Shown piece after piece: positions 1 through 51,494 of a stretch of 64,000 nt of DNA; the stretch's first letter is position 1, and each line of letters opens with the position of its first letter. Under the pieces are notes generated by a model. It saw only the letters and a list, made by a program, of their open reading frames with translations. It made no database searches and was not told where the DNA came from. The stretch is from a bacterium (GTDB lineage Bacteria > Desulfobacterota > Binatia > HRBIN30 > CADEER01). The DNA is taken from positions 7,409-71,408 of the forward strand of contig JAHBUY010000003.1 of the NCBI GenBank assembly GCA_019637795.1, written 5' to 3'. The position numbers were made by a program, and so were the translations under genes.

Positions 1-2427
1 GTCCGTCGCGGCGAGCAACGCCGGCGGAAGAACATCACCATCGCGGATGCCGCGGATGCGGAGGCGATCGTCCTCGGCGCGTTGATCGGCAGCCGATGCG
101 TGCCACGTCACTCGCACCTTCCCATGATGCGCGCAGACGAGATACGCGACGAGGTCGAATTCGTCTTCGCTCAGGTCGAGGATCTCCAATTCGAGCTTCG
201 AGGGCGACGCTTCGCCAGTCGCTGCCGGGGCTGGCGCCTGGCCGATCGCCTCGAGCAGCTCACGCCATCGGCCGAGTAAGGCCGGATGATCCTGACGGTG
301 GCGCCCGAGCACGGCGAACATGCCCAGCGTGCTCGCCAACTCGTGGCGAAAGCCCGCCCGCCGCTGCCCCCCCCCGCTGGGGTAGAGCTGGTGGCGCGGC
401 AGCCAGGCACCATTGGGGGCCTTCGCCAGATCGCGTCGCGCGGGACGTCCTGCGCCGACAATGGAGCCCTGGAAGGCTTCGTGTCGCTTGCCGAGATCGT
501 GCCATCGACCAGCGAGGTCCAGGAGGTGCTCCCGGCCGGGCAGCAGCGTTCGGCCGAACTCCGCCGCCAGGCGCCCAACCTGCTGCCCGTGCACGGCGAT
601 GGTCTGCCACGGATAGGCGCTCAGCGCCTCGTCGTCCTCGCTGGAATCCGCCAGCTCTTCGGGCGAGAGAGCCGGCGGCGCCACCGGCTCGACTGTTGCG
701 CGGCTGCGCGGTGACCATCCCATGGTCGCGGAATACCCGCCGACGTCGGCTGCCACGAGAACGGTCTGCCCTGGGTACAGGTCACGCCGCACCGCCGGGC
801 GCCAGATGCCATCCAGCCAGCTCCAGACCCACGCGCGCACACCGGGAAGGAGACGCGGCGCGCGCTGCTTGCCAGCCTCTTTGCCACACAACCAGTCCCG
901 CGCCCGCAGAAACGGCACGGCACAGAGCGCGGCGCGCGCGGGGCGCAGCGTCGGTTCGGGCGTCGCGCCAGCGGGGACCCGCTCCCAGAACACCTGGAGG
1001 TCGCGCTCCTCCCCGCTGCGAATGAAGCGGCTGATGTCGACATCGGCGCCAGAGAGATCTGGGGTGGTATCGAAGAGGTCGTCCACCTCATGCCGCAACA
1101 GCAGGTGCTTCGGCGCGTAAGGATACAGCCGGGGCAGCAGATCTCGATGCGCATCCTCGAAACGCTCGAGTGCAGCGGGTGACACGTCGGCCAGATGACG
1201 CAAGGCCTCGCGGGCGGAGTCGATCTCGCTCTTTGCGTAGGGCGCGGCCGTCCTTTCGTCAGCGGGTTGCGGGTCGATGATCACGACGTCGGCAGCCCCC
1301 CCCCATCGAGCCGCCCGGCCGAATCGCTGCACCAGGCTCGTCCATGGAGCGAGTGCCGTCACCAGGACCGTGGCGGAGATGTCGACGCCGGCCTCGATGA
1401 CCTGAGTGGCGACGATGATGCGGTCCGTTCCGCGCCCGCAGAAGGCCCGGTCGAGGAACTCACGCCGCCAGGCCTCGCGCTCGTGCGGGCGGAAGCGGCT
1501 GTGGATCAGCCGGATGTCCGTGCCCTGCAGCCGGCGGTCGCGTTGGATCGCCTCGAAGGTCTCGCACGCGTCGTCGACCCGGTTCAGCACCACGAGTGTC
1601 GGCCCGTCCTTGCCCTTGCCGCGCTCGAGATGCGCCGCGATCACCGTGTCGGCGACCGACTTCGCGCCATCGGCCTCGACGACGCGCACCGGCTTTTCGA
1701 CGTCCTCCCACAGGTGGCCGTGGCGAGCAGGTGCGGCGATGTTCGTCAGGGAGATGGTTTCGCTGAAGCCTCGCGTCTCGGGACTCGCTGCAAGCCATTC
1801 GCGCTGAAGCGTGGCGCTCATCCACCATGTGGCGCACGGGCGAAACGCCTTGCGGCCCTCCTCGCGGCGGAAGGCGTGGAGCTGTCCCGAGGTGGCGAGG
1901 CCGACGTCCATGAGCTGCACCTCGTCCATCACCCACAGCGCGTCGTGGTTGAGGAGCCCGAACTCCATCGGCCAGCGCGCCCGCGGACTCCCGTAACCGC
2001 GATTGAGGGCGCGCGAGAGCAACATGTCCTGCGTGCCGATCAGTACCGCGCAGTCTTCCGGGTGGAGATGCCACTCGCCCGCATCGGCACCGCCCATGAG
2101 AACGTACACGCCAACGCCGTGGTGCGGCGCAGCGCCCTCCCGGAGAAGGGCGAGCCGGCGGAGACTCGCGCGCACTTCGTCGGCGGTCTGCTCGACCAAC
2201 ACCCGCATCGGCAGGCACCACACGAGTCGGCGCGGCCACCCGTCATCGTCGCGTTCTACGCGGTGCCACAGCCAGGCCGACAACACCCCAGCAGTCTTGC
2301 CGAAGCCAGTCGGGATGCGGATCAGACGCTCCGATGACAGCGGCTCACCGGCCAACTCCTCCTGCCACGGGTAGGAGCCCGCCTCGATCCCGGTTACGCG
2401 TGCGAAATAGCGCCGAAAGTCACTCAC
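1..2427 (-). CDS. cas3: Cas3 helicase-nuclease with C-terminal HD domain (3' end runs off the left edge). Start is approximate: GTG near 2427 or TTG near 2492.
   Basis: My minus-strand translation gives Walker A IPTGFGKT (around 2290), a DEAH-like DEVQ motif, and helicase motif VI QRFGRAARWG (around 1290). An HD motif WHDLGKRHEAFQ sits near the 3' end (around 500). Helicase before HD is the type I-G/I-U arrangement. Confidence 0.85.
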   Translation of the reverse strand, partial: MSDFRRYFARVTGIEAGSYPWQEELAGEPLSSERLIRIPTGFGKTAGVLSAWLWHRVERDDDGWPRRLVWCLPMRVLVEQTADEVRASLRRLALLREGAAPHHGVGVYVLMGGADAGEWHLHPEDCAVLIGTQDMLLSRALNRGYGSPRARWPMEFGLLNHDALWVMDEVQLMDVGLATSGQLHAFRREEGRKAFRPCATWWMSATLQREWLAASPETRGFSETISLTNIAAPARHGHLWEDVEKPVRVVEADGAKSVADTVIAAHLERGKGKDGPTLVVLNRVDDACETFEAIQRDRRLQGTDIRLIHSRFRPHEREAWRREFLDRAFCGRGTDRIIVATQVIEAGVDISATVLVTALAPWTSLVQRFGRAARWGGAADVVIIDPQPADERTAAPYAKSEIDSAREALRHLADVSPAALERFEDAHRDLLPRLYPYAPKHLLLRHEVDDLFDTTPDLSGADVDISRFIRSGEERDLQVFWERVPAGATPEPTLRPARAALCAVPFLRARDWLCGKEAGKQRAPRLLPGVRAWVWSWLDGIWRPAVRRDLYPGQTVLVAADVGGYSATMGWSPRSRATVEPVAPPALSPEELADSSEDDEALSAYPWQTIAVHGQQVGRLAAEFGRTLLPGREHLLDLAGRWHDLGKRHEAFQGSIVGAGRPARRDLAKAPNGAWLPRHQLYPSGGGQRRAGFRHELASTLGMFAVLGRHRQDHPALLGRWRELLEAIGQAPAPAATGEASPSKLELEILDLSEDEFDLVAYLVCAHHGKVRVTWHASAADQRAEDDRLRIRGIRDGDVLPPALLAATD

Positions 2428-2758
2428 CGGACAGTATCCCAGACCTTTCGAGGTCCACCCACGCCAGGATCGCCGAACGGTGGGCTGGAGACCCAACCGC
2501 GCCGATCCTTCGCATTCACAGACCTCGGCTGGTTATCGACCTCATCCCGCTTCTGCAAGCTTCTTCGCGCCAGTCATGGTCCGGGCCCGACAGCGGCTGT
2601 CTGCGCGCCGCGAACCATTGAGCCTCGACGCCGGCGAGAGCTGCCCCACACAGCCCCGAGCGGATTCCACTGAGCGCATCTCGCGCTCGATGCCGCGCAG
2701 TATTCGCTCGCGGTGGTGGCGTCAGCGGCGTGGGGCGAATATTTGAGAGTCATCCACG

Positions 2759-2992
2759 ATGATGCCGAAGGAACACCAACGCGTCGTCCTGACCGCCCCT
2801 ATTCCCGCTGAGGGCCTGGAGCCCGGCGACGTCGGCACGGTGGTCCATGTCTACGGGGACGGCGCGGCCTGCGAGGTCGAGTTCGTGACGCTGGGCGGTG
2901 AGACCGCGGCGGTGGTGACGGTGGACCACTCAGAGTTCCGTCCGATCTCCCCCGGCGAGATCACCCACGCGCGCGAGCGCCGCGCCTCCTGA
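2759..2992 (+). CDS. DUF4926-family small protein (77 aa) wedged between cas3 and cas2
   Basis: ORF translation ...GDVGTVVHVYGDGAACEVEFVTLGGETAAVVTVDHSEFRPI matches the DUF4926 pattern from memory. Composition is normal, unlike the surrounding junk ORFs. Confidence 0.55.
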   Translation: MMPKEHQRVVLTAPIPAEGLEPGDVGTVVHVYGDGAACEVEFVTLGGETAAVVTVDHSEFRPISPGEITHARERRAS

Positions 2993-3180
2993 GCGGCAAC
3001 CAGGCCCACGCGCGCCGGCAGGTCTCCCAGCGGCCCTGCCCGAACGCCCAGGCGCGCCGGACGCCAGGCGCCACCACCGCCACGCCCGGTGACGCCCGGC
3101 GCGCGCCCCTCCTGGCTGGGCGCCCGGCGCGACCGGCGGGGATGGCGCTGGACGGGTTCTTGCTCCCCGCCGGTCCCGCC

Positions 3181-3483
3181 ATGCGCAACACGTTTCTCGT
3201 CTGCTACGACATCTGCGACGACAAACGCCTGCGCGCGGTCCACAGGACCATGCGCGATTTCGGCGATCACCTGCAGTACTCGATCTTCGAGTGCCAGTTC
3301 ACCGAGAGCGATCTGCTGCGCTGCCGGCACGCGCTGAGCGAGATCATCGACCACCGCGACGACCAGGTGCTGTTCGTCGACCTCGGCCCGTCGGCGGGGC
3401 GCGGCGAGCGGGTCATCACCGCCGTCGGCCGGGCCTACTCGCCGATCGACAGCCCCTGCCTGGTGATCGACGGACGGGAGTGA
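3181..3483 (+). CDS. cas2: CRISPR-associated endoribonuclease Cas2 (alternative start 3142)
   Basis: MRNTFLVCYDICDDKRLRAVHRTMRDFGDHLQYSIFECQF carries the Cas2 signature (VxYDI ... QYSVFEC). Its stop lies 5 nt before the cas4-cas1 start. Confidence 0.85.
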   Translation: MRNTFLVCYDICDDKRLRAVHRTMRDFGDHLQYSIFECQFTESDLLRCRHALSEIIDHRDDQVLFVDLGPSAGRGERVITAVGRAYSPIDSPCLVIDGRE

Positions 3484-3488
3484 CGCCC

Positions 3489-5321
3489 ATGGCCCCGGAT
3501 CAACCCGCGGCGGCCGCTGCCGATGCGCCGGACCACGCCACGCCGGCATCGCCCGCCTACGTGCCGGCGCGCATGCTCAACGAGGTCGTCTACTGCCCGC
3601 GCCTCTTCTTCTACGAGTGGGTCGAGGGCGTGTTCGTCCACAACGCCGACACCGTCGAGGGCGCCCTCCGCCACGAGAAGCTCGAGCGCAAGGAGGACCC
3701 GCTGCCCACAGCGGCCGAGGCGGAGACCGGCGAGTCGATCCGCGCCCGCTCGGTGGAGCTGGCCAGCGATCGGCTCGGCATCATCGCCCGCATCGACCTG
3801 GTCGAGGGCGAGGGCGGCACGCTCTCCCCCGTCGACTACAAGAAGGGCGCGCCGCGCCAGGGCGACGACGGCAGCCCAGAAGCGTGGCCCGCCGATCGCG
3901 TCCAGGTCGGCGCCCAGGCGCTCATCCTGCGCGACAACGGCTACGCCTGCGACGAGGCGGTCCTCTACTACAGCGCCACCCGGCAGCGGGTCCGCGTCGC
4001 GCTCGACGCCGCCCTGGTCGACGAGATCACCGCCGCCATCGCCACCGCCCGCGCCCTGGCGGCCGGCGGCCGCATCCCGCCACCGCTGGTCGACAGCCCC
4101 AAATGCCCGCGCTGTTCGCTGGTCACCATCTGCCTGCCGGACGAGACCCGCGCCGCGGCGACGCTGCCCGCCGAGCCGGACGACGCCGCGCAGCTCGCGC
4201 TCTTCGCCACCGACGAGCCGCCGCGCGCCGCCGCGGAGGCCGACGGCGACGGGCTCGGCGAGGTGCGCCGCCTGATGCCGGCCCGCGACGACCTGCGCCC
4301 GCTCTACCTCACCGGCCACGGCCTCACCGTCGGCAAGAGCGGCGAGGTGCTGCAGGTACGCGAGTACGGCCGCGCCAAGGGCGCGCCGTCGAAGCTGATC
4401 CAGGAGGTGCGCCTCAACGAGATCTCGCAGATCAACCTGTTCGGCAACGTGCAACTGACGCCCGCCGCCGTTCAAGGTCTGTGCGCCGCCGAGAAGCCGG
4501 TCGCGTACTTCTCGTTCGGCGGCTGGTTCTACGGCCTGACGCAGGGGCTCGGCCTGCGCAACGTGTTCCTGCGCCGCGAGCAGTTTCGCCGCGCCGACGA
4601 TCCGCGCTTCGCCCTGCGGGTGGCGCGCGACCTCGTCGCGAGCAAGATCCGCAACCAGCGCACGCTGCTGCAGCGCAACCACGTCGAGCCGCCGCCGGTC
4701 GCGCTGCTGCGCCTGAAGCGCCTGGCGCAGCAGGCGCAGGCGGCCACCGCGCTCGACGAGCTGCTCGGCATCGAGGGCACGGCGGCGCGCCTCTACTTCG
4801 AGCACTTCGCCGGCATGCTCAAGGTCGAGGACGGCGACGGCGGCGCGCCCGCCTTCGACTTCCGCACCCGCAACCGCCGCCCGCCGCGCGATCCGGTCAA
4901 CGCGCTGCTGTCGTTCGCCTACGCGCTGCTCAGCAAGGATCTGATGATCACCTGCCACGGCATCGGCTTCGACCCGTTCGTCGGCTTCTATCACCAGCCG
5001 CGATACGGCCGCCCCGCCCTCGCCCTCGACCTGATGGAGGGCTTCCGCCCGCTGGTCGCCGACTCCGCCGTGCTGACGGCGATCAACAGCCGCATGGTCG
5101 GCGACACCGACTTCATCCGCGCCGGCGACGCCGTCGCGCTCACCCCCGCCGGCCGCAAGGGCTTCATTCGCGCCTACGAGCAACGCATCGACACCCTGGT
5201 CACCCATCCGCTGTTCGGCTATCGCGTCACCTACCGCCGCGTGTTCGAGATCCAGGCCCGTCTCCTGGCCCGCTTCATCAGCGGCGAGATCCTCCGCTAT
5301 CCCGGATTCGAAACCCGATGA
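3489..5321 (+). CDS. cas4-cas1: Cas4-Cas1 fusion protein (610 aa)
   Basis: The N-terminal half has the Cas4 RecB-like nuclease fold with Cys at YCPRLFFYEW and a C-terminal CPRCSLVTIC cluster. The C-terminal half is Cas1 (LYLTGHGLTVGKSGEVLQV ... NALLSFAYALL ... DLMEGFRPLVAD). It is one uninterrupted ORF. Confidence 0.9.
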   Translation: MAPDQPAAAAADAPDHATPASPAYVPARMLNEVVYCPRLFFYEWVEGVFVHNADTVEGALRHEKLERKEDPLPTAAEAETGESIRARSVELASDRLGIIARIDLVEGEGGTLSPVDYKKGAPRQGDDGSPEAWPADRVQVGAQALILRDNGYACDEAVLYYSATRQRVRVALDAALVDEITAAIATARALAAGGRIPPPLVDSPKCPRCSLVTICLPDETRAAATLPAEPDDAAQLALFATDEPPRAAAEADGDGLGEVRRLMPARDDLRPLYLTGHGLTVGKSGEVLQVREYGRAKGAPSKLIQEVRLNEISQINLFGNVQLTPAAVQGLCAAEKPVAYFSFGGWFYGLTQGLGLRNVFLRREQFRRADDPRFALRVARDLVASKIRNQRTLLQRNHVEPPPVALLRLKRLAQQAQAATALDELLGIEGTAARLYFEHFAGMLKVEDGDGGAPAFDFRTRNRRPPRDPVNALLSFAYALLSKDLMITCHGIGFDPFVGFYHQPRYGRPALALDLMEGFRPLVADSAVLTAINSRMVGDTDFIRAGDAVALTPAGRKGFIRAYEQRIDTLVTHPLFGYRVTYRRVFEIQARLLARFISGEILRYPGFETR

Positions 5322-5537
5322 CCGACTCCCGCGAGCCCGCTCTCGCCAACCCGCCCGACCGCGCGAGCGCCTCGGTGACGGCGATTCCCCGGCCCCCGCT
5401 CGCGCCGAGAATCCGTTGCCCCCACCAACCCTTGCAGCACCGCGCGCCACGGACTACTGCACGTCCCCGCGCGTCGCCCCGAGCCGCTCGCAATCCGCAC
5501 CCGTGGTCTTTGACTTTCGACAACTTGCAGTGGAACT
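5322..5537 (+). promoter_or_regulatory. CRISPR leader (216 bp between cas4-cas1 stop and first repeat)
   Basis: Position only. The degenerate terminal repeat is at the far end of the array, so this end is the leader-proximal side. Confidence 0.5.
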
Positions 5538-7904
5538 CCTTCCGCGGCTGAACAGCCGCGGCCTCATTGAAGCGACGCCGGTCTGCGCCTGGTGGAGGAC
5601 AAGGTCCGCCCTTCCGCGGCTGAACAGCCGCGGCCTCATTGAAGCCTGCGCGGCCGCGAGATGTCGGTCCGCCTGATTCTCCCTTCCGCGGCTGAACAGC
5701 CGCGGCCTCATTGAAGCGTGATCGCGCCATCGACCCCGAGGATCCGCGCCAACGCCCCTTCCGCGGCTGAACAGCCGCGGCCTCATTGAAGCCTGCAGCC
5801 GTCCGTAGTCGAGGGCCTTCGCGTCGCCTTCCGCGGCTGAACAGCCGCGGCCTCATTGAAGCGCGGGCTTGCTCGCAATCCATGGTCCGCTGCGGCACCC
5901 TTCCGCGGCTGAACAGCCGCGGCCTCATTGAAGCGCGAAGAGCCGCCCCGGCGCCTCACTCCACAAGAACTCCTTCCGCGGCTGAACAGCCGCGGCCTCA
6001 TTGAAGCCCGATCTCGTGCGCTTCGGGCGGTATCGCGACACGCCGCCCTTCCGCGGCTGAACAGCCGCGGCCTCATTGAAGCACGCCCGGCGCGGGCGGC
6101 ACGGCCACGCCGAAGCCGCCTTCCGCGGCTGAACAGCCGCGGCCTCATTGAAGCACCGCCGCCTCGTCCGCCGCGCTCATCGCTGCACCTCCGCCTTCCG
6201 CGGCTGAACAGCCGCGGCCTCATTGAAGCGACACCTATCGCTTCGGCGTCACCAACGACACCTGCCTTCCGCGGCTGAACAGCCGCGGCCTCATTGAAGC
6301 ACCTGCTCGGGGCCCAGCTCGCCCAGAAGGCTCCCCACCTTCCGCGGCTGAACAGCCGCGGCCTCATTGAAGCTCGCGGCAACCGACGCGGATGGAGAGC
6401 ACGCCATCGCGCCTTCCGCGGCTGAACAGCCGCGGCCTCATTGAAGCCTCACCTTCGCCGCGCAGGGCATCTACGCGACGCCGACCTTCCGCGGCTGAAC
6501 AGCCGCGGCCTCATTGAAGCCACCCACCACAATCGGCGGTTCAATCCGCTAGAAAGGCCTTCCGCGGCTGAACAGCCGCGGCCTCATTGAAGCCGCCTGC
6601 ACCGCGACATGGGCGCGCGATGGATCGACCTTCCGCGGCTGAACAGCCGCGGCCTCATTGAAGCGAGCCAGCGTTGCGCGTTGGCGAAGCCGCGCAACGC
6701 CTTCCGCGGCTGAACAGCCGCGGCCTCATTGAAGCCTCCTCATAGATCCGCCGCGTCTCGGCCGGCAGCGTCGACCTTCCGCGGCTGAACAGCCGCGGCC
6801 TCATTGAAGCCGCGCACGCAAGCGCCGTCTGCCGCGTATCTCAATTATCCTTCCGCGGCTGAACAGCCGCGGCCTCATTGAAGCCTGCTCGGTGTCGTGA
6901 CGATAGCCGTCGATCGCACCCTTCCGCGGCTGAACAGCCGCGGCCTCATTGAAGCGCGCCGTCGAGGCTGGCGCCGACGAGGCTGGCGCGGACCCTTCCG
7001 CGGCTGAACAGCCGCGGCCTCATTGAAGCCTGGCAAGCTGACACGGACACTTACGAGATCGTCGACCCTTCCGCGGCTGAACAGCCGCGGCCTCATTGAA
7101 GCCAGCCCCCTCATTTCCGCTCCCTGAGTCACGACTCCCACCTTCCGCGGCTGAACAGCCGCGGCCTCATTGAAGCACGGTCACGCGCGGCCCATCCTTC
7201 TTGGCCGTGCCCGGCCTTCCGCGGCTGAACAGCCGCGGCCTCATTGAAGCCGGCCTACCCTGGCGGCCTCGATCTGCCCCACGGCTCCTTCCGCGGCTGA
7301 ACAGCCGCGGCCTCATTGAAGCGCGCGCTCGACCCACGGTACATCTTGGAGTTCACGGGGCCTTCCGCGGCTGAACAGCCGCGGCCTCATTGAAGCCAGA
7401 TTGTCGGTGAGGTGGTGTCGGGTCTCCGCACCCTTCCGCGGCTGAACAGCCGCGGCCTCATTGAAGCCAGCTCGGCGGCTTTCTGCTGCGCCGCGTTCTT
7501 GTCCTTCCGCGGCTGAACAGCCGCGGCCTCATTGAAGCAACAAGATAAACTTTACGTGCCAGTGGAAACTGAGGTACCTTCCGCGGCTGAACAGCCGCGG
7601 CCTCATTGAAGCAGCCTCAGGCGTTCCCACGTCGCGTCGCGCGAGCCACCCTTCCGCGGCTGAACAGCCGCGGCCTCATTGAAGCATCGCCGCCATCCCT
7701 CACCTCCATTCAAAAAGGGGCCGGCCTTCCGCGGCTGAACAGCCGCGGCCTCATTGAAGCGCTGCCACCGCTCTCACCACCGCTGACGAATGCGGCCTTC
7801 CGCGGCTGAACAGCCGCGGCCTCATTGAAGCCACTCGACGCTGGTGCAGGCAGACCTCGACCAGAAGCCCTTCCGCGGCTGAACAGCCGCGGCCTCAATT
7901 AGGT
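5538..7904 (+). CRISPR. CRISPR array: 33 repeats of 36 bp (CCTTCCGCGGCTGAACAGCCGCGGCCTCATTGAAGC) and 32 spacers of 34-39 bp. The last repeat is degenerate (…CCTCAATTAGGT).
   Basis: Repeat starts counted directly at 5538, 5610, 5682, 5757, 5827, 5899, 5972, 6047, 6119, 6194, 6265, 6338, 6412, 6485, 6558, 6629, 6700, 6775, 6849, 6920, 6994, 7067, 7141, 7215, 7287, 7361, 7432, 7503, 7577, 7650, 7725, 7796, 7869. The repeat has an internal 7-bp palindrome GCGGCTG/CAGCCGC and an ATTGAAGC 3' tail. Confidence 0.97.
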
Positions 7905-8121
7905 CAAGCCGGCCGTCTGGGCGCCGCGAGCGGCGCCCAGACGGAGAAGCGCGGTCCGCGTGCTGCGCGTGCGCGGGCCTTCCAGGTGGGACGGACGCGG
8001 TGGCGCGCCGCAGCGTCGGCGCTGCGCGTTCGTTCTCGGCGCCGGGCTTGCCACGCGGCGGCGGCGGGCGGTCGCGCGGGAGCGCGGCCCGCCAGGGCGC
8101 CAACGCCGCGCGGGGCCCGGG

Positions 8122-41944: not shown

Positions 41945-41946
41945 CA

Positions 41947-42060
41947 GGTTGTTAGGTTGCTAGTTGTTAGGTTGTTAGGTTGTTAGGTTGTTAGGTTTTC
42001 CGGGCGACTCATACTGATAACCTAACAACCTAACAACCTAACAACCAACAACCTAACAAC
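41947..42060. repeat. AT-rich inverted repeat whose arms are tandem octamers ((GTTGTTAG)n ... loop ... (CTAACAAC)n); long hairpin between gatB stop and cysK RBS
   Basis: Left arm 41947..41997 has 6 units (one variant GTTGCTAG). The loop is ttttccgggcgactcatactgat. Right arm 42019..42060 has 5 units (one missing a T). RBS aaagggagg sits at 42067 and the cysK ATG at 42079. Confidence 0.85.
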
Positions 42061-50561: not shown

Positions 50562-50582
50562 GCCGGGTTAGAGGAGGCTCCC

Positions 50583-51494
50583 ATGAAGCGTCTCGCAGGC
50601 GTCGTCGGCACCGTCGCGGCGGTGCTGTTCTGTTCCGCCGCCGCCCGCGCGGCGATCATCTCCTGTGGCAGCGTCACTGCCGTGCGCGGCAGCTCCGCTC
50701 CGGTGACGATCTCCCTCCAGCTCGAGGGAGACGAGGTCGTCGCCGGCACCCAGAACGACCTCCAGTTCGACAGCGACGCGTTCGACATCGCGCCGCGGGA
50801 CTGCGTCATCAATCCCGCCATCGGACCCGACACCGAGGCCGACAAGACCCTGAGCACCAGCCTGCCGCCGGGCGAGATCCCGAGCGTGCGCAACCTGGTG
50901 GTGGCGCTCGACAACACCAACGCCATTCCCTCCGGAGCGCTCTACACCTGCAGTTTCCACGTCCGCGGCAGCGCCGAGCTCGGCGAGCACGTCCTCACCA
51001 ACGTCAACGTCCGCGCCAGCAACCCGCAGGGCATGGTCGTCCCGACCACCGCCGGCGACTGCACGATCACCGTGCAGGACGTGTCGCCGACCCCGACTCC
51101 GCGCTGCACCAACGACGACGACTGCCCGAGCGGCGAGGTGTGCGTGAACAACACCTGCGTCACCGCCACGCCGACCAGGACCCCGATCGGCTACTGCACC
51201 GGCGACCGCGACTGCCCCAACGGCCAGGTGTGCGTGAACAACATGTGCGTCACCCCGACGCCGACCCGCACCCCGATCGGCTACTGCACCGGCGACCAGG
51301 ACTGCCCCAACGGCCAGGTGTGCGTGAACAACATGTGCGTCGCCGTCACGCCCACCGCGACGAGGAAGAGCGGCGGGGGCGGGGGGTGCAGTTGCGAGAT
51401 CGATCCCGGCGCCCGCGGCCGCAGCGGCGACGTGCTGGCGGTGCTCCTGCCGGCGCTGATCCTGGCGCTGCGCTGGCGGCGGCGCCGCGCCTGA
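50583..51494 (+). CDS. cell-surface protein: cohesin-like N-terminal domain, three Cys-rich repeats, MYXO-CTERM-like sorting tail
   Basis: A signal peptide is followed by a cohesin-like beta-sandwich segment (SAPVTISLQLEGDEVVAGTQNDLQFDSDAFDI ...). Three copies of CTxDxDCPxGxVCVNNxCV are separated by TPTPTRTP linkers. The tail is GGGGGCSCEID ... VLAVLLPALILALRWRRRRA. Confidence 0.65.
   Translation: MKRLAGVVGTVAAVLFCSAAARAAIISCGSVTAVRGSSAPVTISLQLEGDEVVAGTQNDLQFDSDAFDIAPRDCVINPAIGPDTEADKTLSTSLPPGEIPSVRNLVVALDNTNAIPSGALYTCSFHVRGSAELGEHVLTNVNVRASNPQGMVVPTTAGDCTITVQDVSPTPTPRCTNDDDCPSGEVCVNNTCVTATPTRTPIGYCTGDRDCPNGQVCVNNMCVTPTPTRTPIGYCTGDQDCPNGQVCVNNMCVAVTPTATRKSGGGGGCSCEIDPGARGRSGDVLAVLLPALILALRWRRRRA

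Follow-up and report, generated by a model that had tools for sequence, protein, structure and literature searches.

The DNA stretch analysed here, 64,000 nucleotides (nt) of contig JAHBUY010000003.1 from a member of the Binatia (assembly GCA_019637795.1; hereafter, the window), bears at its left end part of a chromosomal CRISPR-Cas system of type I-G (formerly I-U), of the kind that has Csx17/Cas8g1. The system continues past the left edge, is complete and apparently intact, and consists of two divergent operons. The explanation that best accounts for the observations as a whole, and that we consider highly probable, combines such a divergent I-G system with a Cas3g nuclease-helicase carrying a Fic domain at its C terminus and with a putative FicTA-like pair housed inside the cas3 gene. 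The typing and completeness of the locus, the Cas3-Fic fusion and the presence of a dual-coding stretch in the linker between the HD and Fic domains were established computationally.

The cas3 gene runs off the left edge of the window, and its distal part and the genes that follow it were read on Logan contig L001, retrieved by exact-sequence look-up of the DUF4926 protein encoded beside the cas genes. This contig overlaps the window over 4,907 nt with 0 mismatches and reaches 7,242 nt further left. Coordinates are given as window positions, those outside the window being converted from L001 (L001 = window + 7242). Since both the Fic domain and the nested open reading frame (ORF) described below are located in this flank, they could not be seen in the initial annotation, which covered the window.

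The Fic domain of Cas3g and the ORF nested in its linker

The product of cas3 matches family TIGR02621 with 667 bits over the part encoded in the window and with 721 bits at full length (cut-off 400), and the PADLOC Cas3g model with 712 bits. As the initial annotation had proposed, the gene is located on the strand opposite to the adaptation genes and encodes a helicase followed by an HD nuclease. It lies on the minus strand and extends beyond the left edge; the superfamily 2 (SF2) helicase occupies amino acids (aa) 3-590 (nt 658-2421) and comprises the Pfam domains DEAD, Helicase_C and Cas3-like_C_2, and the Cas3_HD nuclease is at aa ~604-793 (nt 49-618). The full-length protein consists of 1,128 aa, versus 884-898 aa in the listed relatives lacking a Fic domain, and is identical to NCBI protein MBX3025230.1, encoded on a 944-kb contig of a metagenome-assembled genome (MAG). 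The motif residues of the helicase, HD and Fic parts are invariant in an alignment of 25 homologues.

The C-terminal part of Cas3g was recognized as a Fic domain by several methods. Residues 979-1079 match the Pfam Fic family with 34.8 bits (cut-off 24), and human FICD was matched in the PDB (E = 1.7e-7). The AlphaFold (AF2) model of aa 935-1128 has a predicted local distance difference test (pLDDT) value of 92 and template-modelling (TM) scores of 0.7-0.76 to FICD, VbhT and EcFicT. The PADLOC models PDC-S04 (47 bits, positions 19-202 of 205) and SoFic (41 bits) also match this part. The active-site motif, HPFADFNGRTTR, has the form HPFxDFNGRxxR, and 112 of the 120 best database homologues (53-63% identical) have HPFxD(F/L)NGR, with H1061, D1065, N1067, G1068, R1069 and R1072 being invariant in the 25-sequence alignment. 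Compared with the pattern HxFx(D/E)GNGRxxR, the His, Asp, Asn, second Gly and both Arg residues (R1 and R2) are kept, while the first Gly is replaced by Phe, which is itself invariant in the family.

The distribution of this domain was assessed in a set of 80 best genome loci encoding Cas3g relatives, in which cas genes were mapped by tblastn, along with a set of 80 metagenome loci obtained by a Cas2 scan (Cas2 identity 69-90%). Of the 80 genome loci, 35 encode a Cas3 whose C terminus matches Fic, the match being full length in 34, and the hosts include Gammaproteobacteria, Burkholderiales, Acidobacteriota, Nitrospirales, Rhodothermales and a cyanobacterial MAG. The same fusion occurs in the isolates Thiocapsa roseopersicina DSM 217 and Thiocapsa marina 5811, and more than 100 database clusters have the length of about 1,130 aa that corresponds to Cas3-Fic. 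The protein is named "Fic family protein" by NCBI in this MAG and in several other records, so the cas3 gene is hidden in them.

Clustering of non-cas ORFs across the loci revealed that the top cluster is confined to Fic loci and located inside cas3. Its member in this genome is read in the +1 frame of cas3 and encodes a protein of 69 aa; it starts at about aa 880, where Cas3g proteins without Fic end, and stops at about aa 948, a few codons into the Fic domain. Using tblastn, this nested ORF was found in 34 of the 35 Fic genome loci; it was not detected in any of the 45 genome loci lacking Fic or of the 80 metagenome loci. It is intact in 33 of the 35 Fic loci, as well as in this genome's own locus, and is deleted or decayed in two (L019 and L040). 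Its ATG is conserved, and in most loci, this one among them, GGAG precedes it by 7-12 nt. Along cas3, variability is highest at the third codon position; across aa 878-922 it is instead highest at the first, corresponding to the wobble position of the nested frame, with a diversity of 0.47-0.52 versus 0.16-0.41 at the third position. The cas3 frame is nevertheless free of stop codons in 34 of 34 loci, at a G+C content of 58% to 71% in this stretch, while, when the nested ORF is shuffled synonymously, frame 0 stays open in only 0.25-55% of trials (12.5% on average). Both frames are thus under selection, and the linker stretch is dual-coding.

The family of the nested protein comprises 651 database clusters. 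Among the 120 best listed, none has a Pfam domain and the named ones are annotated as "hypothetical protein"; the nested ORF of this locus likewise gave no significant match in a Pfam or PDB profile search. A cas3 masked by the name of its Fic domain and a nested gene without a Pfam match illustrate how annotation can mislead. No description of the Cas3-Fic fusion or of the nested gene was found in the open-access literature, and an earlier description elsewhere is possible; this Cas3g-Fic subfamily is widespread and, with its overprinted antitoxin-like gene, apparently undescribed.

Residues W6, W13, L16, P30, S36, E40, E42 and V44 of the nested protein are invariant, and G41 is nearly so. 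The block S36-x3-E40-G41 (SMAFEG) is located at the C terminus of a predicted helix. The class I Fic antitoxins FicA and VbhA, encoded immediately upstream of their toxins, carry an inhibition motif [S/T]xxxE[G/N], whose Glu makes a salt bridge to the Fic motif's final Arg (PMC5033356). The equivalent of this Arg in Cas3g is the invariant R1072. The match of the nested protein to the FicA/VbhA motif and its position upstream of the Fic domain suggest that cas3 has absorbed a toxin-antitoxin module resembling class I FicT/FicA. A classical inhibitory motif in the Cas3-frame sequence N-terminal of the Fic domain was considered separately and rejected, as the Glu of the candidate T-R-x-x-E-T is not conserved.

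In its general form, this proposal would define a phylum-spanning I-G subfamily, represented by 35 of the 80 closest genome loci and by more than 100 protein clusters, with a FicTA-like pair in cas3 and an overprinted inhibitor; the chances for and against it appear evenly balanced. If correct, it would mean that CRISPR interference, or the retention of the cas operon, is coupled to a post-translational growth-arrest switch, which would represent a new wiring of toxin-antitoxin and abortive-infection logic into a type I effector.

Family membership and the published work on Geobacter sulfurreducens and Thioalkalivibrio sulfidiphilus suggest how the CRISPR part of such a system would operate. 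Cas4/Cas1 and Cas2 would insert spacers at the leader-proximal repeat, and the Cas6-like domain of Csb2 would cut each repeat, leaving the 8-nt handle ATTGAAGC. Csb2, Cas7g and Cas8g would bind the CRISPR RNA (crRNA), with Cas3g as an integral subunit that would nick and unwind the targeted DNA. The C-terminal Fic domain of Cas3g, of the AMP-transferase type and attached by a linker of roughly 70 residues, would act as a toxin, and the nested 69-aa protein would keep this Cas3-tethered Fic silent. Known FicT toxins AMPylate gyrase and topoisomerase IV (PMC5033356). Loss of the small protein, or activation upon target binding, would release growth arrest. We infer a toxin-antitoxin mechanism and a role in defence, in which the pair would function in addiction to the locus or as an abortive-infection back-up.

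Alternatively, the nested ORF may be a real gene whose product is not a Fic antitoxin and instead acts as a regulator, links Cas3-Fic to Cascade as an adaptor or plays a CRISPR-related part of its own. The lack of a sequence or fold match to FicA/VbhA is consistent with such a role, as is the fact that the nested ORF is intact where the Fic catalytic part has gone (L029 and L165-L168). We regard this alternative as unlikely, although far from negligible, because the ORF strictly co-occurs with the Fic domain over the 80 genome loci, because the invariant S-x3-E-G is its sole strongly conserved block besides two Trp residues, and because its position mirrors that of FicA relative to FicT. In general toxin-antitoxin biology, moreover, antitoxins are known to outlive their toxins.

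Four loci are remnants in which the nested ORF is kept: L165 (5523-6450), L166 and L167, all three from Nitrospira MAGs, and L168 (6001-6269). The loci L165-L167 consist of cas3 codons 1-121 (in L165 also codons 845-880), an intact nested ORF, the first ~37 codons of Fic and the last ~65 codons of csb2, followed by cas4/1 and cas2. In these three loci the interference operon has been deleted and the small ORF kept.

Could the fusion itself be an artefact of gene calling, with cas3, a small antitoxin gene and a separate fic gene following one another and frame 0 being open by chance? The nested ORF does span the interval from the end of a Fic-less Cas3g to the start of Fic, as expected for a three-gene operon, and the amino acid sequence of the linker in frame 0 is itself not under selection. 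This possibility is improbable in view of the uninterrupted frame 0 and the shuffling results given above, and of the existence of more than 100 database clusters of fusion length. As no stop codon interrupts the frame, a ribosome that translates cas3 has to continue into the Fic part, although Fic may also have an internal start of its own.

Several points weigh against the reading of a Cas3-borne toxin-antitoxin pair in a functional I-G system. The left flank was taken from another assembly of the same sequence and not from the window itself. The model of the nested protein as a monomer is only moderately confident (pLDDT 69), neither sequence nor fold similarity to FicA/VbhA was detected, and a Foldseek search with the model returned no match. 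The S-x3-E-G motif is short, and by a rough estimate a random 69-aa peptide would carry it in about 6% of cases. The remnant loci that have the small ORF and lack the Fic catalytic part indicate that the ORF could have a role of its own. As the Fic motif reads F-N-G and not the canonical GNG, the domain may perform a chemistry other than AMPylation. The Fic domain is, moreover, dispensable for I-G function, since its catalytic part has been lost in the closest relative, L029, whose cas3 (protein P0002, 1,031 aa, 70% identical) lacks the catalytic motif and has an intact nested ORF (region L029 12345-13164). Finally, searches of phage, plasmid and viral contig sequences revealed no protospacers, and hence no target or protospacer-adjacent motif (PAM) to be compared with the TTN of type I-G.

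Typing and completeness of the locus

The interference genes predicted by the initial annotation to lie left of the window, downstream of cas3, are present on L001, where cas3, cas8g1, csb1 and csb2 are contiguous with abutting or overlapping boundaries (Table 1). The scores of Cas3g, Cas8g1, Csb1 and Csb2 all exceed the NCBIfam cut-offs. Only these four contiguous interference genes were called, with no separate cas5, cas6 or cas11. The apparent lack of Cascade genes nearby, to which the initial annotation had given prominence, is thus an artefact of the window edge and does not apply to the genome, as cas8g1, csb1 and csb2 directly follow cas3 outside the window. Within the window, the absence of cas5/6/7/8 genes between cas3 and the array holds true, and it is explained by the divergent layout.

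Beside csb2, at L001 90-1310 on the plus strand, ~5.9-7.2 kb left of position 1, lies a gene for an AAA_14/DUF4143 ATPase matching the PADLOC candidate defence family PDC-S01 with 231 bits, which places the CRISPR locus in a small defence island.

The second operon begins with a DUF4926 ORF and includes cas2, a cas4-cas1 fusion gene and the CRISPR array, all of them at or within a few bases of where they had been marked initially; the fusion gene is now read from the ATG at 3489 instead of 3486. The fusion protein (Cas4g/Cas1g) covers the whole of model NF049935 with 733.5 bits (cut-off 560) and comprises Pfam domains Cas_Cas4 (aa 30-217) and Cas_Cas1 (aa 273-566); the PADLOC Cas1g model gives 565 bits. 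The Cas2 proteins of relatives with 81% and 64% identity begin at a Met corresponding to position 3181, and the true start of cas2 is probably the ATG located there, which would yield a product of 100 aa. The PADLOC subtype models call Cas3g, Cas2g and Cas1g.

The repeats of the array are 36 nt long, and 32 of the 33 are identical; the last one has four mismatches. The presence of this degenerate repeat at the far end of the array indicates that the leader is on the side of cas4/cas1. The 32 spacers are all unique and 34-39 nt long. The repeat RNA is predicted to form an 8-bp stem closed by a GAAC loop, which leaves 12 nt as a 3' tail (-15.5 kcal/mol), and the repeat ends in ATTGAAGC, fitting an 8-nt handle of the I-G type. 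In related I-G loci, most repeats measure 36-37 nt and most have GGCCTCATTGAAGC, or a sequence close to it, as their end, and a Cereibacter plasmid has a similar repeat beside cas genes annotated as type I-U; on these similarities, the repeat is assigned to the I-G repeat family. The whole array had no match in phage records and matched plasmids only at other arrays with similar repeats, two spacer seeds found no match in viral contigs, and no self-targets were detected in the window or in any fetched locus. A near-perfect G+C-rich inverted repeat, CCGTCTGGGCGCCGC-GAG-CGGCGCCCAGACGG, is located at 7913-7944, 9 nt past the last repeat; it has no T-run and possibly acts as a terminator or a barrier where the array ends.

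All cas genes of the window were typed as I-G by the subtype-specific hidden Markov models (HMMs), and the agreement of these models with PADLOC and the repeat family bears out the type proposed initially. A decayed or orphan system, in which the adaptation module, the array and a stray cas3 are left with no effector or with a Cascade borrowed from a distant locus, is suggested by the 64-kb window without detected cas5/6/7/8, but it is very improbable given that cas8g1, cas7g and csb2 directly follow cas3 on a contig identical over 4,907 nt, that all ORFs are intact and that the repeats are homogeneous. Misassignment of another subtype (I-C, I-B or I-D) or of a hybrid could be suggested by the scores of 223-293 bits that the Cas1 part also reaches on the I-D, I-C and MYXAN Cas1 models. 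It is scarcely credible, as these scores are below the models' own cut-offs, while the I-G models for Cas3g, Cas4g/Cas1g, Cas8g1, Cas7g and Csb2 all pass and the PADLOC subtype models and the repeat family point to I-G.

A second effector module elsewhere in the window was sought among sampled ORFs and not found. Three ORFs to the right of the array have no NCBIfam Cas match, and 10 large ORFs have housekeeping Pfam domains only; the ORFs sampled from the rest of the window, coding for reductases, a polysaccharide cluster, a histidine kinase, an Mrp antiporter and GatB, were of housekeeping and polysaccharide functions only.

Table 1. Features of the type I-G locus, from left to right (negative positions lie outside the window and are converted from L001).
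Feature	Position	Strand or context	Evidence and details
csb2 (Cas5-Cas6 fusion)	-4225 to -5832	follows csb1	TIGR02165, 178 bits
csb1/cas7g	-3223 to -4221	follows cas8g1	TIGR02570, 82 bits; Pfam Cas_GSU0053, 122 bits
cas8g1/csx17	-956 to -3226 (L001 4016-6286)	follows cas3	TIGR04113, 553 bits
cas3 stop	-959	-	L001
Fic domain, Cas3 aa 979-1079	about -507 to -809	within cas3 (-)	
Linker with nested +1-frame ORF	about -214 to -423	within cas3 (-)	
Nested ORF, 69 aa	L001 7028-6819, about 214-423 nt left of position 1	+1 frame of cas3	product MKSVDWEQAIQAWRMLPEDEKHRRRWQRIPANVAASMAFEGEPVSLEMLEAEHARRPIPPVTSRHDSES
cas3g, first 809 of 1,128 codons	1..2427, off left edge	-	GTG start at 2427; TIGR02621, Pfam, PADLOC
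Intergenic region, divergent cas3 versus DUF4926/cas2 operons	2428..2758	.	between the two operons
DUF4926 ORF, 77 aa	2759-2992	+	Pfam PF16277, 68.5 bits
cas2 (Cas2g)	3142-3483	+	Pfam CRISPR_Cas2, 63.8 bits; PADLOC Cas2g, 92.7 bits
cas4-cas1 fusion (Cas4g/Cas1g), 610 aa	3489-5321	+	ATG read at 3489; NF049935
Leader, 216 nt	5322..5537	+	between cas4/cas1 and first repeat
CRISPR array, 33 repeats and 32 spacers	5538-7904	+	repeat CCTTCCGCGGCTGAACAGCCGCGGCCTCATTGAAGC

Gene order and history of the modules

Most of the genome loci are colinear, with the order cas3-cas8g-cas7g-csb2-(gap)-cas4/1-cas2-array. This canonical colinear I-G order, which is typical and not defining, is not found in the locus studied here, where the operons are divergent and cas2 comes first. 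The three departures noted in the initial annotation, namely the opposite strand of cas3, the position of cas2 before cas4-cas1 and the lack of effector genes between cas3 and the array, are real, yet they are not unusual. Among the 46 genome loci with cas1 detected, 9 have the adaptation module upstream of cas3 and on the other strand. In the metagenome set, cas2 precedes cas4/1 in 73 of 73 loci with cas4 detected, one of which, a coordinate overlap, was scored as an exception by the script; cas3 lies on the same strand in 28 loci and on the opposite strand in six (6 of 34 divergent). A closely related cas3 is present in three of these six divergent loci (L102, L085 and L148). Exactly the same divergent order, with cas2, cas4/1 and the array, occurs in a Planctomycetota MAG (L077), and these three loci share the arrangement. 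The closest relative overall, L029, with Cas3 70% and Cas2 81% identical, is colinear and, by reading of its ORFs, carries toxin-antitoxin genes between csb2 and cas2. Judged by these comparisons, the cas2-first order is a trait of a large lineage of adaptation modules, and the divergent orientation a recurrent rearrangement. The I-G locus itself is thus ordinary, its odd layout being a recurrent variant derived from module shuffling.

The G+C content at third codon positions (GC3) is 0.77-0.80 in cas3, cas8g, cas7g and csb2, 0.93-0.94 in cas2 and cas4/1, and ~0.95 in host genes. The codon usage of the adaptation module is thus host-like, and the two modules seem to differ in their histories, so that the locus looks as if an adaptation module and an interference operon had been brought together by recombination. 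The interference operon, of lower GC3, is inverted relative to the colinear locus of L029, and DUF4926 lies at the junction of the modules, a site occupied by toxin-antitoxin genes in other I-G loci.

DUF4926 has been reported as a conserved downstream partner of the DUF6883/BECR-Tox3 RNase toxins and is presumed to be an immunity protein (bioRxiv 10.64898/2026.08.28.747851). The ORF found here is a clear member of DUF4926, but it differs from the DUF6883 (BECR-Tox3)/DUF4926 pairs in having no preceding DUF6883 gene: no DUF6883-like ORF is present upstream in any frame, and the gene is accordingly called an orphan. None of the 160 related loci (80 genome and 80 metagenome) contains DUF4926. 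The most likely reading is that a toxin-immunity pair once stood at the module junction and left this orphan, which would then be no CRISPR component.

The region between the two operons contains no credible ORF in any frame and presumably carries divergent promoters. A scan for the sigma-70 promoter consensus found nothing, a result that is uninformative at the G+C content of 70%, and a scan for terminator consensus sequences was uninformative as well.

Many other loci (L092, L095, L098, L110, L112, L129, L142 and others) have cas2-first modules located ~5 kb downstream of a cas3 with only 25-29% identity. No cas8g, cas7g or csb2 was detected by tblastn between cas3 and the adaptation module in loci of this kind, which may represent more divergent I-G-like systems or a different effector module sharing the adaptation lineage.

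Two further sequence features were observed in the window away from the CRISPR locus. At 41946-42060, about 6.6 tandem AGGTTGTT units are followed by a ~20-nt loop and the reverse complement (AACCTAAC and AACAACCT units), forming a long A+T-rich hairpin between the stop of gatB and the start of the next gene in a genome of ~72% G+C. At 51089-51356, three tandem 90-nt units with an 86% match are located inside a plus-strand ORF (50562-51494), which follows a gene for a PD40/EF-hand protein; the consensus unit translates to a Cys-rich repeat.

Comparison with known systems

The I-U/I-G system of G. sulfurreducens (Almendros et al., 2019; PMC6547450) shares its gene content with the locus described here, namely cas3, a cas8 large subunit, cas7, cas5/6 (csb2), a cas4/cas1 fusion and cas2. 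Its leader is of similar size, about 205 bp versus 216 nt here, and its repeat ends in ...AGC. The two systems differ in that the genes of G. sulfurreducens are colinear, with cas4/1 preceding cas2, and in that its large subunit is cas8u2, whereas that of the locus described here belongs to the Csx17/Cas8g1 family. Fic was reported there as a separate gene, while here it is fused to cas3. A survey published in 2014 counted ten Fic/DOC genes standing alone within type I cas loci, one of them in G. sulfurreducens, next to an antitoxin (PMC3936711).

The I-G effector of T. sulfidiphilus (Shangguan et al., 2022, PMC9638904; Shangguan and White, 2023, PMC10482374) consists of Csb2, Cas7 and Cas8g (Csx17), with Cas3 as an integral subunit, and resembles the present system also in its 36-nt repeat and 8-nt 5' handle. 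Toxin-antitoxin genes are located there between the interference and adaptation modules. Compared by description, Cas3 is presented in these papers with two active sites, helicase and HD, and with no mention of Fic, while the locus studied here has a third domain (Fic), the nested ORF and divergent operons.

The class I Fic modules VbhT/VbhA and EcFicT/EcFicA (PMC5033356) share with the C-terminal domain of Cas3g the fold (TM 0.76 to VbhT and 0.71-0.74 to EcFicT) and the conserved catalytic His, Asp, Asn, R1 and R2. Each has, directly upstream of the toxin part and overlapping its start, an ORF for a small protein, helical by prediction in the case of the nested ORF, that carries [S/T]xxxE[G/N] where a helix ends. 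Unlike in these modules, the putative toxin is fused to the C terminus of a CRISPR nuclease-helicase, and the fusion linker carries the antitoxin-like gene overprinted in a second frame; the Fic motif has D-F-N-G-R in place of (D/E)-G-N-G-R, and sequence homology to FicA/VbhA is undetectable. The candidate-defence and defence families PDC-S04 and SoFic of PADLOC also match the Fic domain, PDC-S04 nearly from end to end, but they are free-standing single genes, whereas here the corresponding sequence is a domain of Cas3.

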